IMG/VR virus record: IMGVR_UViG_2925908680_000007
Span: 1-64,000 of that record
Direction: 5' to 3' (one strand)
From: a virus
Lineage: Duplodnaviria > Heunggongvirae > Uroviricota > Caudoviricetes
Length of the DNA stretch: 64,000 bases
Position numbers: made by a program. Shown piece after piece: positions 60,001 to 64,000 of the stretch (the first letter of the stretch is position 1; every line of letters starts with the position of its first letter).

Positions 60001-63000
60001 CAAGTGTATTGTGTTCACCGCTCATCAAAGACATCATGATGAAATGATGATATTCCACATAAGAAAGAAGCATTTTTTAAACGCAGTGCGCTGAAGTATG
60101 GTTGGATAAAAAAGTCAATCTATTCAGGGAATACGGGGGTATTCTTTTCTTTCGACAATCAGGTCGTCGGCAAAATAAAATGATTTACATAATCGTTTCT
60201 GATGAATATCTTCTGCTCACATAAAAATCACACAATAACTTTGAGATCGCAGATTCTTTTACTTTTACAGCATTCGTCCCCCCATTGTTGGGCAAATATA
60301 GATTGGGCCAGAGCACGAAAGTTAATACCACGTTTGCACAGCTCCTCCAACAGCACGACAAGATGCCACATACTGCGCCCCAGTCGGTTCGGTTTACAGA
60401 CTACCCGTGCGTCCACCGCCGATAATGTCCTGAGCAGTTTTTTCAGTCCGGACCTCCTGCCACGGTTTTACGTTGAAGAGGTAACCCTGAGCACGCAGTT
60501 CATCAGTCAGGCGTGGTGTACCGTAACCCTATTATTGATGGGTAAGATCAAAAAAACTTTCAGGCAGCTAAGGAAAGTTGAACCAGACATTAGAATAAAT
60601 ATTTCAACCAATTACAGCACCAATTCAGACACCGCCAGCTCAACAAATAAATCAAGGGGTTACGTGAAAGCGTAGCCCCTTTTTCTTTGGTAGTGGCAGC
60701 AAAATGGTTGTAGTGTAAAAAATAATCCCGTTTAATCAATCAATAATACATATTGTTTCAATCTACGTTATTATCTCTTTGTAAAAATAGCCATTTATTA
60801 ATCATTGAAAACTGCTTTTAGAACTTGATACAACGGGACTAGTCACAACAGGACTATTCTCAACGGGATCATCCTCAGAGGAACTATCATCAAAGTCATC
60901 ATCCATAAATAAAATATCATCGAATGGTGCCACGCCCGTGATGAGTTTTATTTTATTATTACGATCAGTCAAGACTCCACTTAAACCGTTTTCGCTCACA
61001 GGTTTTAATGATTTTTCATTACTCTTGTTGTAAGCAGGCGCATTAAAAATACACGGAGTATCAAGATCAAACAATGACGTTCCCCAGTTCACATATTGAA
61101 TATCATAGTTACTGAAGTTCTGTCCAGAAAAGAAGCATCCCTTAAAATCCAATCCACCTAAATTATATAAACCATCCTCTTCTTTTTGGAGAGTAATGTT
61201 AATTTTGGCTATCTCCCGGACATCATCGCCATTTTTATATTTGAATACCGTTTCAAGATTTTCCCCACACAGTTTGACTTCTGGAAATAATTTGAAATCA
61301 AAGCCTATATTATTATGTATCAACGTAGATGAACAAAAGATGGAGAAAGCTTGCAGTGCTGAATTATAGCTTTCGATTTTATCCTGAGGCTGCGCTCTTG
61401 GTAAAAACTCATAGCAACATTCATAAAAATTAAGTAGAAACTCTGAAGACCTTCCATTTTTATCAAATAATATCCCCTTGAACTCATTCACAAACGCATC
61501 TTTTTTTTCTTGAATATCTATGGGGTGTTCCTTTGACTCTGACAAAGATGAAATCTCATCTATTTTGTTTTCATATGAATTACGTGATTCCATACAGACA
61601 TTTGGCGGCGTTTCTAAAATAACACTACGCGTACTACTTGGCTTAAGTAAACCAACATGAAAATCACTTTTTCTTATATTATCGAAAAGGTTCTGTTCAT
61701 TTCTTTTAGCGCATTCAAAAAACTGATCGGCATTATTTTTATTCGATAATTTTTTAGTTTCAGAAAACACATTTTCATTGTTTTCCAGCTTTAGTTTAAT
61801 GAGAAGATTTTCCCAGACCTGCTTGCTTAAACATATTACGTCAGGCTCACCAGAACTAACTAACTCGTGATTATTATTAAAGTGTACGTTGAATACCTTT
61901 AAGTTATTTTCACCAACTTCATATTTAATACGTTTTAATTGTTCTCCAGCTCCCATAATGACAAAGGCGTTGCCTTCTTGATATATACATTCAGACATCA
62001 TTTTTTGTAAAGTTTCAAGAGCACCGCGATACGTCTCTGATGCAGCTTCCTTACAAATTAATTTTAAAATACTATGAGCTAGTAGCTCCATGTGTTTAGA
62101 AGATTTATTTTCATTATAACTTCCACTACCCAAAACTGCGCTAGCGTTAAATCCGTTGCTTTTACTAACTAACATTGTCTATTCCTCAATTAATGTCTAC
62201 ATGGCTATTTTTAATTTTATTATTGTTTGTCACTATAAAAAATCGCTCATTTGAGACAATTGCTGGCATTAACAGCTTCATATGCTATACATGGTACTTT
62301 TAATTAAATTAGCACAAGAATGTTAAATTTAATAAACAAAAAGTTATTTCGCTGTATGATAAAAACCACCCGTTATAATTTATTAGTGAAATTCGTTTTT
62401 CGAGTGTTAGAAATTTATATCTCAATAGCGTTGGTTAATGAGCATAGCCACGCTCCTGTAACGCTCACAAAACTCATCTGCCTGCGGCGGGTGTTCTGGT
62501 CAGTAGTAGATGTTTAAGGCGTGGCAGAGACATTTCATCCTTACTCTACGGCATTGTTCTACATACATTGGTTGTGGTACTCACTCATCATCAGTGAGCG
62601 AACAGAGAATAGTTCAGTGATTTGAGTAATTAACCTGATTAAATTAAGGGGTATAATAAATGATAATACTCTGGCTTTATCGTTAATTACTTAATTCCAC
62701 ATGTAAGCAATTTGCCCGCTTGGCATAGCGGGCATTTTTTCCAGGTACTTTTGAATGAGTACTGATGGATAAATACATTGCAGTGGCGTGCCACGTACCA
62801 AAACACCAGCCCTCATTCGAAACAACCCACCGCACTTCTTCCTTGAAATGGCGTTAGTCATGAAATATAGACCGCCATCGAGTACCCCTTGTACCCTTAA
62901 CTCTTCCTGATACGTAAATAATGATTTGGTGGCCCTTGCTGGACTTGAACCAGCGACCAAGCGATTATGAGTCATGAGGCAAGTCCATTCTATATTGTTT

Positions 63001-64000
63001 TGGTTTGTTCGTAATTGTTTTATTAATTGTTTATAATCAAGTAATTATGTAATTGCTTCTGTTTCCGCTTGGTTCCGTTTTTTCTCCATTGTACGATCGT
63101 TACCTGACCCATTACCTGACCCAAATTTACGAGTTATTTTGATTGTTACTGGTTTAGAAAAGAGGTTCTATGGCCGTCAATCTAACTGAAACAGCTATCC
63201 GAGCATTGAAAGCAAAAAAGACATCGTTCTATGTCTGGAGCAACAGTTCTCAACGTGGCACTGGACGACTTGGCATCAAAGTTCAGTCTTCTGGCAGCAA
63301 AATTTTCTATTTCCGCTATTACGTGGAAAAAGGGAAAAAAGAAAGATTCATTCAATTGGGTATATGGCCTGAGATGAAACTGGCTACAGCGAATGAACTG
63401 GCAAAAAAGTATGGTGCCTGGCTCATTGAAGGAAAGGATCCCCAGACAGAACTGGAGCGACAACAGCTTGCAGAACAGCAGCGGATACAACTCCATCAAT
63501 CACAGGGCTCATTTGAAGCATTGATTCATGGTTATGTTAACAAAATGAAAATTGATAATAAGAGAACATGGCAGGATGTTCTGAAACGCCTTGAAAATGA
63601 ATGCTATACAGTGATCCCCCGTGAGACTAAAGCTAAAGATGTGACTTCCGGACAGATTAAACATATCCTGGCCGGGATCATTCAGCGCGGTGCAGTGGTT
63701 CACTCTAACCGGATCCGTTCTTACCTGATGGCTGCATTTAACTATGGTCTGAAAGCTGATAACGATCCGATGAACACAAGTGTAGGGATTACTTTTGGGC
63801 TGGAGGCCAATCCGGTATCAGTGATACCGAAACAGTCATCTGCTGAAAAAGTCGGTGACACCTGGCTGACACTCGAAGAGTTGCGTTTTCTAATGGAACA
63901 TTTTGCTGAAGCAACCAACGTTGGATTATTGATGCAACATTTGATCCGATTCTGTATCTATACCGGGGGGCAACGTCCCTTCGAAATGATCGCCAGTCAG

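Follow-up and report, generated by a model that had tools for sequence, protein, structure and literature searches.

The integrase end of a 72-kb genomic island in the tRNA-Ile2 gene ileY of Escherichia coli strain cq9

The described elements closest to the locus analysed here are CP4-6 and CP4-57 of Escherichia coli K-12, together with P4 and the P4-like satellites. In CP4-6, which occupies thrW, the intact tRNA gene abuts the toxin-antitoxin/RadC/antirestriction/GTPase end, while the opposite end holds the integrase gene intF, which reads inward and diverges from the tRNA; the same arrangement is found in our island, as are the gene types of the distal module (YkfA-type GTPase, DUF932, antirestriction, RadC, DUF987 and a YeeU/CbtA-type pair). 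The target of CP4-6, however, is a tRNA for Thr and not Ile2, its IntF is 24% identical to the island integrase in the catalytic domain only, and it lacks the TTACCTGACCCA arm motif context of the ileY island. CP4-57, at ssrA, shares with our island a P4-like integrase with an arm-binding domain, an AlpA-family regulator/excisionase, YfjI (DUF3987), YfjJ/YagK-type proteins and a distal antirestriction-RadC-DUF987-antitoxin-toxin block, the K-12 segment compared comprising the right half of CP4-57, ssrA-derived repeat included. The integrase gene of CP4-57 directly adjoins the intact tmRNA gene, whereas that of the ileY island adjoins a displaced fragment of its target.

P4 and its relatives, one of which lies at 44787-55971 of the DNA studied here, likewise target a tRNA-type gene and encode integrases built from Arm-DNA-bind_3, SAM-like core-binding and catalytic domains. 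The P4-like integrase at 44787-45986 can be aligned with the island integrase over its full length (E 6e-26), yet the two are 26% identical, and the island protein scores 79.8 bits against a cut-off of 434 for NCBIfam PRK09692, the P4/CP4-57-type model. By these measures the island integrase is P4-like in domain architecture only and falls outside the PRK09692 subfamily. P4 itself recombines at a short stretch in the 3' end of leuX, whereas the repeat of the ileY island is 47 nt long and starts in the anticodon stem; moreover, no satellite genes (psu, delta, alpha primase) follow the ileY-island integrase. A further point of comparison is ileX, which is listed as an island insertion site in Shiga-toxin-producing E. 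coli, where integrative elements as well as tellurite-resistance or LAA islands are reported and their cargo and short repeats described (PMC7067040, PMC7545054, PMC9144400). In the passages of these papers that mention ileX, a 47-nt fragment, a hybrid tRNA and the use of ileY are not described. In the O111:H8 locus, the same integrase gene as ours stands beside nfeF at the ileX position.

The whole stretch of DNA that we analysed, 64,000 nucleotides and hereafter the window, is sequence of E. coli strain cq9 at 100% identity. Strain cq9 is a pig isolate and is Stx2e-positive. We conclude with high confidence that the window closes, in its final kilobase, with the integrase end of an integrative genomic island 72,376 bp long, which occupies positions 3825262-3897637 of NZ_CP031546.1 in the source genome, has its left boundary at window position 62974, and entered the tRNA-Ile2 gene ileY by site-specific recombination. 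The four features of the Islander-type definition of a tRNA-gene-targeted integrative genomic island (PMC4383910) are all present, namely an intact tRNA at one end, a displaced cognate 3' fragment on the 3' side of that tRNA and in the same orientation, an integrase gene between them, and an unoccupied site with colinear flanks; the ileY island of cq9 is, in this sense, an ordinary tRNA-targeted island. A search within the 72 kb found no internal copy of the att sequence, so the island is one att-bounded unit. The features in the window are collected in Table 1.

Table 1. Features at the ileY locus, in window coordinates
Feature	Position	Strand	Evidence
pinH pseudogene, internal fragment of a Pin/Hin-type serine recombinase	60297..60464	-	PF00239 27.3 bits; PGAP; K-12 synteny
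IS3-family transposase N-terminal HTH fragment, about 23 codons, abutting the pinH fragment	about 60460..60528	-	Frame translation GYGTPRLTDELRAQGYLFNVKPW; HTH_21
ypjCB, intact AT-rich gene, 457 aa, function unassigned; split into ypjB and ypjC in K-12	60802..62175	-	DUF5507, DUF5508, NCBIfam
Displaced chromosomal 3' fragment of ileY, tRNA positions 30-76	62927..62973	-	47/47 identity to K-12 ileY; flanks
Segment identical in both repeat copies, 20 nt GACTCATAATCGCTTGGTCG, tRNA positions 30-49	62954..62973	-	Fragment compared with far-end hybrid tRNA
Island arm, core to integrase gene, 196 bp, AT-rich	62974..63169	+	Unrelated to empty K-12 site; conserved in ileX copies of the island
Tandem 12-bp motif TTACCTGACCCATTACCTGACCCAA, candidate arm-type integrase binding site	63100..63124	+	Repeated at far end of island
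Island integrase gene, 5' 277 codons in window; full gene 438 aa, ending at window-equivalent 64486	63170..64000	+	Pfam, PHROG

At the integrase end, a 47-nt pattern that agrees with positions 30-76 of K-12 ileY at 0 mismatches occurs once in the window, and such a match arose in 0 of 100 shuffles. ARAGORN calls no intact tRNA over this interval. Identity with ileY ends exactly at tRNA position 30; the alignment is colinear with K-12 to the left of the fragment, and the DNA to the right is foreign and unrelated to K-12. Both junctions and the empty site can be observed directly in a three-way alignment, in which the left junction matches K-12 as far as tRNA position 30, the right junction matches it from position 29 on, and K-12 itself reads ypjC - ileY - ygaQ with nothing intervening and with colinear flanks. 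At this end of the island, where the integrase gene lies, the 47-nt fragment forms the core of the att site. Most of what the first-pass annotation had proposed for this region is borne out: the 47-nt 3' fragment of a CAU tRNA, the replacement of its 5' half by foreign DNA, an integrase gene that starts about 200 bp further on (the ATG is 196 bp from the fragment) and runs off the edge of the window, and the insertion of an integrative element into the neighbouring tRNA gene, an intact tRNA being expected at the far end of that element. The integrase is indeed the third in the window, after those at 43271-44443 (Stx2e prophage) and in the P4-like satellite, while its designation as P4-type holds for the domain architecture and fails on identity and model score. 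The element itself had been counted as the second tRNA-targeted island; it is the third integrative element in the window, two others standing in tandem at ssrA.

Other signals in the vicinity are few. PGAP calls a spurious 94-aa ORF across the tRNA fragment. An Rfam scan of 56000-64000 (E<=1) returned no known RNA family over the fragment, and its sole match, BjrC68 at 60641-60688, is sub-threshold (23.7 bits against 39) and was set aside as merely a terminator-like hairpin. Between 62150 and 63250, promoter-like sites are no more frequent than in shuffled sequence, and one terminator-like hairpin is found (62713-62734, plus strand).

Extending the sequence downstream, as the first-pass annotation had advised, leads to the matching repeat. 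An intact tRNA-Ile (CAU) lies 72.4 kb away at 3897591-3897666 (minus strand) of the record, both in the PGAP annotation and by ARAGORN, in the same orientation as the fragment and ahead of ygaQ, glaH and gabDTP, the same neighbours as in K-12. The two tRNA copies form an imperfect 47-nt direct repeat with 42/47 matches. The far-end gene is a hybrid, composed of the 5' half of ileY and an island-supplied 3' part, GTCGTTGGTTCAAACCCAACAGGGGCCACCA, that introduces five differences from ileY. Its changes in the T-stem are compensatory, leaving the predicted cloverleaf unchanged, and the foreign part creates a U6-G67 wobble pair at ileY; in cq9, this 3' part is identical to the tail of the chromosomal tRNA-Ile2 of Kluyvera, Atlantibacter and related genera. 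Since tRNA positions 30-49 alone are identical in both copies of the repeat, the crossover is placed in the anticodon stem-loop/variable region, the shared 20 nt spanning the anticodon loop, the 3' strand of the anticodon stem and the variable loop.

The integrase carries Arm-DNA-bind_3 (PF13356, E 1.4e-14, 54.5 bits against a cut-off of 27), Phage_int_M and Phage_integrase (PF00589, E 1.4e-10, 41.6 bits against 27.1), and it matches PHROG 1, integrase, at E 5e-46. Among 17 relatives, the most distant at 41% identity, residues R269, K296, R367, H390 and Y400 do not vary; they align with the corresponding motifs of the P4-like integrase. Across the whole family, the first His of the catalytic R-K-H-R-H-Y set is replaced by Arg (R364; Lys in one relative). 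The likely excisionase of the island is encoded by an AlpA-family gene that lies 4.4 kb inside it (PF05930, E 4e-13; PHROG 2790, 'excisionase and transcriptional regulator', E 6e-23). The AT-rich stretch in front of the integrase gene is the integrase-side arm of the roughly 280-bp attP that we infer, and presumably contains the int promoter. Within it, the tandem TTACCTGACCCATTACCTGACCCAA motif is a candidate arm-type integrase binding site; the identical 25-mer recurs in the same orientation at the far end, at a distance of 56 bp from the 3' end of the tRNA, has no other occurrence in the island, and is seen in strain EC5 at either end of the ileX island.

As we picture the arrival of the island, the N-terminal domain of the integrase would bind arm-type sites, for which the TTACCTGACCCA tandem repeats on both arms are the candidates, and the tyrosine integrase would exchange strands in the anticodon stem-loop/variable region, with cleavage probably in the anticodon loop. 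Because the incoming DNA carries a copy of tRNA positions 30-76 of its own, integration would join the 5' half present in the chromosome to the 3' part supplied by the island, so that the far end again holds a complete tRNA. The 3' part that ileY originally had, now the 47-nt fragment, would be displaced to the opposite end, where it lies directly upstream of int and is divergent from it. A circular form would carry the junction ...CCCTTTGTTGTGTA TGGTGGCCCCTGTTGGGTTTGAACCAACGACCAAGCGATTATGAGTC ATGAGGCAAGTCCATTC..., and excision would restore ileY between ypjCB and ygaQ. Where the integrase binds and exactly where it cuts are, for this island, inferred from the sequence, and so is any mobility today a matter of inference.

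The same layout recurs well beyond cq9. Among 5,426 complete E. coli genomes, the junction of this island family is present at ileX in 360 and at ileY in 97, and the integrase in 454, and both sites are in use; near-identical integrases (99-100% nucleotide identity) come from pig, duck, chicken, human, dog and wastewater isolates. At ileX of strain EC5, the architecture and the island-type 3' part are the same, in the order nfeF, fragment, int ... DUF4942, tRNA, mug. In other species of Gammaproteobacteria, 51 loci whose integrases are 39-99% identical to ours carry, 144-246 nt upstream of int, a minus-strand tRNA-Ile2 fragment that starts at the same tRNA position, and 0 of these 51 have an intact tRNA upstream of int. 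The layout is kept across the integrase family.

Between the conserved ends, the contents are varied. The cargo of the cq9 island comprises sugar-utilisation operons, anti-phage systems (Hhe, DUF262 proteins, type I R-M) and an Ag43 adhesin. The two genes immediately after int (198 and 543 aa) have no match to a defence system or domain in PADLOC and Pfam; the 198-aa protein has a single match, PHROG 7522, where no function is assigned. Copies or fragments of IS66, IS3, IS21/IS100, IS5, IS256, ISL3, IS481 and IS4 and two group II intron RT genes are also present; having so many IS elements, transposase fragments and group II intron genes in it, the island is a mosaic, possibly fixed in place. 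Carried further, this would mean that the att-bounded 72-kb stretch is now non-mobile and that most of its present content came from IS activity and from homologous recombination between E. coli islands related to one another, rather than from one integrase-borne arrival. We regard that as possible rather than probable. It accords with the abundance of insertion sequences and intron genes, and with the wholly different cargo of EC5 (resistance genes) between ends that are conserved in both strains. On the other side, int and the AlpA gene are intact, as are both att halves and both arm motifs, and the integrases of isolates from such varied hosts and from wastewater are nearly identical. A fixed mosaic is in any case compatible with our explanation of how the junction arose, and disputes present-day mobility only.

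In the DNA to the left of the tRNA fragment, the first-pass annotation had read a decayed island remnant with fragments of a Pin-type invertase and an IS3 transposase and an AT-rich pentapeptide-like gene. The recombinase fragment covers profile positions 54-103 of 145 of PF00239, above the cut-off of 23.3 bits; PGAP labels it 'recombinase family protein, missing N- and C-terminus', and K-12 has a pinH pseudogene at the syntenic place. It has neither the catalytic-serine region nor the HTH and, being a mere gene fragment, cannot be a functional serine invertase; it belongs to the conserved ypjA-ileY segment and not to the new island. For the adjoining peptide, the support for an IS3-family identity is weak, yet real: it matches HTH_21 at E 0.012 with the rve domain absent, tblastn gives 80-92% identity in 1,554 records of a plasmid collection, and plasmid pP63 has a stretch about 80% identical immediately in front of an ORF that encodes rve/rve_2/rve_3 domains. 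A tblastn search of 60000-60800 with the IS3-family transposases of the compared loci gave nothing significant, and the fragment belongs to a different IS3 subgroup.

The AT-rich gene is real and is ypjCB, the chromosomal flank downstream of ileY (GC 0.30-0.36; DUF5507, E 7e-110; DUF5508, E 1e-177; NCBIfam Ecoli_YpjCB, 942 bits); all the homologues listed with a source name belong to E. coli or to a close Enterobacteriaceae isolate, with no less than 80% identity. Its pentapeptide character finds no support in Pfam: an excised 66-residue segment scores 12.3 bits (E 0.13) against the 20.2 cut-off of PF00805 and the full protein gives no match, while six consecutive pentads, LDFKG CFFSG QNFSN YDIQY VNWGT SLFDL, are readable directly in the protein. 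An AlphaFold single-sequence model has a mean pLDDT of 35, too low for fold comparison. The fragments are genuine, but the notion of a remnant must be qualified: the pinH fragment, the IS3 fragment and ypjCB are older E. coli sequence common to K-12 and outside the ileY island, and no second ileY-type repeat that would delimit them exists in the window besides the phage tRNA. An island origin for this segment is no more than plausible.

Such IS and recombinase fragments nearby, together with the loss of ileY through IS-mediated deletions in E. coli W and B (PMC3032704), could suggest that the 47-nt fragment is what an IS-mediated or other illegitimate deletion left of ileY and that the adjoining integrase comes from an unrelated element. 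We consider this very improbable, for a deletion would have to account for a break exactly at tRNA position 30 in 51 loci of many genera, for the same arm motif at both ends of the island and for the same type of junction at ileX; the far-end junction, at which the island ends, 72 kb off, in its intact and cognate hybrid tRNA, refutes it. Least credible of all is descent of the fragment from a phage-borne ileZ-like tRNA of an old prophage, which the closely related CAU tRNA in the Stx2e prophage of the window (28252-28327) might bring to mind, since the fragment agrees with chromosomal ileY at 47/47 positions and with that phage tRNA at 44/47, as the comparison called for by the first-pass annotation was meant to decide, and the DNA flanking it on the 3' side runs colinear with the intergenic region between ileY and ypjC in K-12.

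Site-specific integration into ileY leaves the host with a chimeric tRNA. A bolder proposal would make the integrase clade a Gammaproteobacteria-wide, tRNA-Ile2-specific module, each integration swapping the T-arm and 3' acceptor strand of the host AUA-decoding tRNA for foreign ones, with the chimera functionally unlike the native molecule in expression, TilS lysidine modification or AUA decoding. We hold this to be very unlikely; if the chimeric tRNA did differ in function, the translation of AT-rich genes acquired horizontally would be altered in the host, and the island would have an effect at its target instead of being neutral there. Beyond annotation, the significance of the locus is small. 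The exact left boundary and the size of a 72-kb island are now fixed in an Stx2e-positive pig isolate, and the island offers a clean example in which the integrase gene adjoins the displaced tRNA fragment and not the rebuilt tRNA, a layout for which island-finding software and annotators should allow. In E. coli, a single integrase family, found in about 8% of complete genomes, has both ileY and ileX as alternative targets.

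An integrative element occupies the chromosomal tRNA-Ile2 gene ileY at the right edge of the window. Its far side was read on the chromosome of Escherichia coli strain cq9 (a pig faeces isolate, NZ_CP031546.1), which is 100% identical to window positions 60000-64000 and whose position 3762289 corresponds to window position 1. The first-pass annotation had described the 3' fragment of a CAU-anticodon tRNA whose 5' half is replaced by foreign DNA. The 47-nt fragment is indeed identical to positions 30-76 of K-12 ileY; no intact tRNA is called there by ARAGORN, and the K-12 match ends exactly at tRNA position 30, the sequence to the right being unrelated. 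To the left, a three-way alignment identifies the ileY-ypjC intergenic region, colinear with K-12. Aligned with both possible sources, the fragment agrees at 47 of 47 positions with chromosomal ileY versus 44 of 47 with the ileZ-like tRNA of the window's Stx2e prophage. The integrase gene, predicted about 200 bp beyond the fragment, has its ATG 196 bp rightward, and the intact tRNA-Ile expected outside the window lies 72 kb further on; next to it come the ygaQ pseudogene, glaH, lhgO and gabDTP, the same neighbours as those of ileY in K-12. The observation of a tRNA fragment and an integrase at the window edge is confirmed and its interpretation as a tRNA-targeted island is supported, both junctions and the far-end tRNA fitting an element inserted in the neighbouring tRNA gene. 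In the PGAP annotation, a 94-aa 'hypothetical protein' (WP_064986930.1) spans the fragment; the junction creates its start ATG by bringing an island AT against the fragment's first G, and its codons 1-16 are translated tRNA fragment. This ORF is almost certainly spurious, a by-product of the integration event.

Features of the window and of the adjoining cq9 chromosome
Feature	Window position	Strand	Remark
Stx2e-converting prophage	~1100-44500		at ssrA
stx2eA/B	26748-27983
tRNA-Arg(TCT), tRNA-like 'OTHER' gene, ileZ-like CAU tRNA	28074-28327		directly upstream of stx2eA/B
Prophage integrase	43271-44443		at end distant from ssrA
Weak tRNA-3'-end-like match	44578-44602	+	record 3806866-3806890
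P4-like satellite	44787-55971		primase to ~55971
Satellite integrase	44787-45986
ypjA/ehaD, disrupted	56634-59889
Hairpin and T-run	60641-60688	+
ypjCB	60802-62175
WP_064986930.1	62691-62975	-	spans tRNA fragment
tRNA-Ile2 3' fragment	62927-62973	-
25-bp motif	63100-63124
Island integrase	from 63170
Two post-integrase genes	64616-66930 (equivalent)		24617-26931 of L001, the cq9 locus across the window edge
Intact tRNA-Ile, far end		as fragment	record 3897591-3897666

The far-end tRNA is a hybrid, with the 5' half of ileY and, from position 50, GTTGGTTCAAACCCAACAGGGGCCACCA versus GCTGGTTCAAGTCCAGCAAGGGCCACCA in ileY. Its 3' part differs from that of ileY at five positions: the T-stem changes are compensatory, the acceptor-stem change gives a U6-G67 wobble, and the predicted cloverleaf is identical for both versions (-30.8 versus -34.1 kcal/mol). 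The fragment next to the integrase retains the chromosomal version. Because the two copies share only positions 30-49, and island-chromosome identity starts at position 30, the crossover is placed in this interval, which runs from the last two pairs of the 5' anticodon stem through the anticodon loop and the 3' stem to the variable loop; strand exchange would occur inside it, at cleavage positions that are putative. Among the sublocation classes of integrases, those whose strand exchange takes place in the anticodon loop typically leave this pattern. The integrase ATG is preceded, at a distance of 46 bp, by a 25-bp tandem motif, TTACCTGACCCATTACCTGACCCAA, that recurs in the same orientation at the far end, 56 bp away from the 3' end of the tRNA, with no copy found elsewhere in the island. 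Were the island excised as a circle, the two copies would lie on either side of the tRNA-derived core, about 126 and 56 bp from it, as candidate arm-type sites for the integrase N-terminal domain.

The complete integrase (438 aa) comprises arm-type DNA-binding, core-binding and tyrosine-recombinase catalytic domains. As had been noted, it is the third in the window, since the prophage and the satellite to its left each have one. The label 'P4-type' holds for its domain architecture but not for subfamily membership (79.8 bits, where the NCBIfam P4/CP4-57-type model has its cut-off at 434). On sequence grounds it represents a separate subfamily, P4-like in architecture, because it scores far under this cut-off and aligns over its full length with the satellite's P4-like integrase at only 26% identity. 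The one relative of solved structure that a sequence search found is an arm-binding domain in isolation (3ju0, E 0.009). R269, K296, R367, H390 and Y400 are unchanged in 17 relatives, down to 41% identity. The first catalytic histidine position is Arg in the island integrase and in all relatives compared, except for Lys in one.

With a size of 72,376 bp (GC 50.7%) and no internal att copy found within it, the island is therefore a single att-bounded unit. In order, it comprises int, two genes without assigned function, an AlpA-family excisionase/regulator, YfjI (DUF3987), IS66 and a YfjJ/YagK-type gene; operons for the use of galactan, raffinose and sucrose; Hhe, an anti-phage protein, with two DUF262 proteins and a restriction-modification system of type I; and a block, typical of E. 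coli islands, of GTPase, Ag43, DUF905, DUF932, antirestriction, RadC, DUF987, YeeU antitoxin, CbtA toxin, DUF957 and DUF4942. The cargo is a mosaic, given the numerous IS elements and pieces of transposase genes, along with two group II intron genes, scattered through it. The genes following int encode a 198-aa protein matching PHROG 7522, a function-unknown family, and, on the opposite strand, a 543-aa protein for which Pfam, NCBIfam, PHROGs and PADLOC gave no match. Both are positionally conserved in the ileX islands of E. coli EC5 and O111:H8 and are candidates for accessory or defence functions.

This layout is not accidental, as follows from its recurrence at ileX, the second tRNA-Ile2 gene, from counts in E. 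coli and from 51 loci in other species. ileX carries the same integrase (96-98% nucleotide identity), arm motifs and island-type tRNA 3' part. The order in EC5 is nfeF, a 47-nt fragment of ileX type, int ... DUF4942, intact tRNA and mug, with a cargo of resistance genes quite unlike that of cq9; in O111:H8 the left junction at ileX is the same. Among 5,426 complete E. coli genomes, the integrase was found in 454, the ileX junction in 360 and the ileY junction in 97. A scan for relatives, with one genome per species, yielded 78 loci, 51 of which pair an integrase of 39-99% identity with a minus-strand tRNA-Ile2 fragment of the same tRNA start position, 144-246 nt upstream of the integrase start. 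Their hosts include Escherichia albertii, Yersinia, Serratia, Erwinia, Pantoea, Kluyvera, Citrobacter, Photorhabdus, Providencia, Vibrio, Aliivibrio, Grimontia, Colwellia and Litoribacillus. No locus of the scan has an intact tRNA upstream of int, and the fragment's T-arm differs from host to host, as it should if it is host sequence that was displaced. Kluyvera ascorbata, Atlantibacter subterraneus, Escherichia sp. ESNIH1, Enterobacter sp. Bisph1 and Chimaeribacter have a host-type fragment identical to the 3' part that the E. coli islands carry, a match that may record an earlier host.

Edaphovirga cremea has two tandem tRNA-Ile2 fragments upstream of its integrase (L020, 1299-1345 and 2757-2803). 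The outer of the two is degraded, suggesting that insertions occurred in succession. The locus of Sodalis sp. RH13 is an almost fully decayed island, its integrase broken and fragment and intact tRNA only 3.8 kb apart (L031, 2769-2815 and 6602-6678). Most of the distant integrases (L063-L086, about 38-44% identical; Proteus, Xenorhabdus, Gilliamella, Psychromonas and some Vibrio) lack the upstream tRNA-Ile2 fragment, L068 being the exception; the family therefore has at least one other target specificity.

Across the window the order is smpB - ssrA, Stx2e prophage, P4-like satellite, disrupted ypjA, pinH fragment, ypjCB, tRNA fragment and integrase. The satellite, in tandem behind the prophage, carries integrase, psu, ogr/delta, Icd-like and alpha primase genes; between int and psu, in the usual P4 hotspot, a DUF2326 gene and an 'ABC-three component system middle component 6' gene are probably its anti-phage cargo. 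The autotransporter gene ypjA/ehaD, a single 4.6-kb gene in K-12, is annotated in cq9 as a pseudogene lacking the C-terminus, accompanied by a small beta-barrel ORF that is separate from it.

Between ypjA and the tRNA fragment, the Pin-type invertase fragment of the first-pass annotation is borne out (PF00239, 27.3 bits, profile positions 54-103 of 145), as is that of an IS3 transposase, of which about 23 codons are left (HTH_21, E 0.012) and whose peptide is about 80% identical to a stretch ahead of an rve-domain ORF on plasmid pP63. The supposed AT-rich pentapeptide-like gene is AT-rich (YpjCB, GC 0.30-0.36), but the pentapeptide assignment is sub-threshold in Pfam (E 0.13); six consecutive pentapeptide-like units can be read by eye. 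YpjCB consists of DUF5507 and DUF5508, and the homologues listed in the database search are all at 80% identity or more, their named sources being E. coli or a close relative. The gene is intact in cq9 (457 aa) and split into ypjC and ypjB in K-12; its E. coli alleles are unusually divergent (80-98% identity; lengths 430-492 among full-length matches), and the C-terminal tail is acidic and serine-rich. Between the IS3 fragment and ypjCB, a GC-rich hairpin with a T-run behind it, AAGGGGTTACGTGAAAGCGTAGCCCCTTTTTCTTT, resembles an intrinsic terminator and gives a sub-threshold Rfam match to BjrC68. K-12 has the pinH fragment, the IS3-family fragment and ypjCB in the same position, and they belong to an older, shared ssrA-ileY segment. 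That this segment is a decayed island remnant, as first proposed, is plausible given its low GC, mobile-element debris and location downstream of a tRNA, but no second ileY-type repeat bounding it was found.

Like the cq9 island, CP4-6 of K-12 (at thrW) has its tRNA adjoining a toxin-antitoxin end and a divergent intF at the opposite end; however, IntF is only 24% identical to the island integrase, over the catalytic domain. CP4-57, whose integrase presumably adjoins ssrA, shares backbone gene types with the island. Three reports (PMC7067040, PMC7545054, PMC9144400) already record ileX islands in Shiga-toxin-producing E. coli, and one paper mentions an ileY-associated phage. In nothing does the island at ileY deviate from the accepted model for integrative elements that target tRNA genes, and its boundary is useful for annotation.
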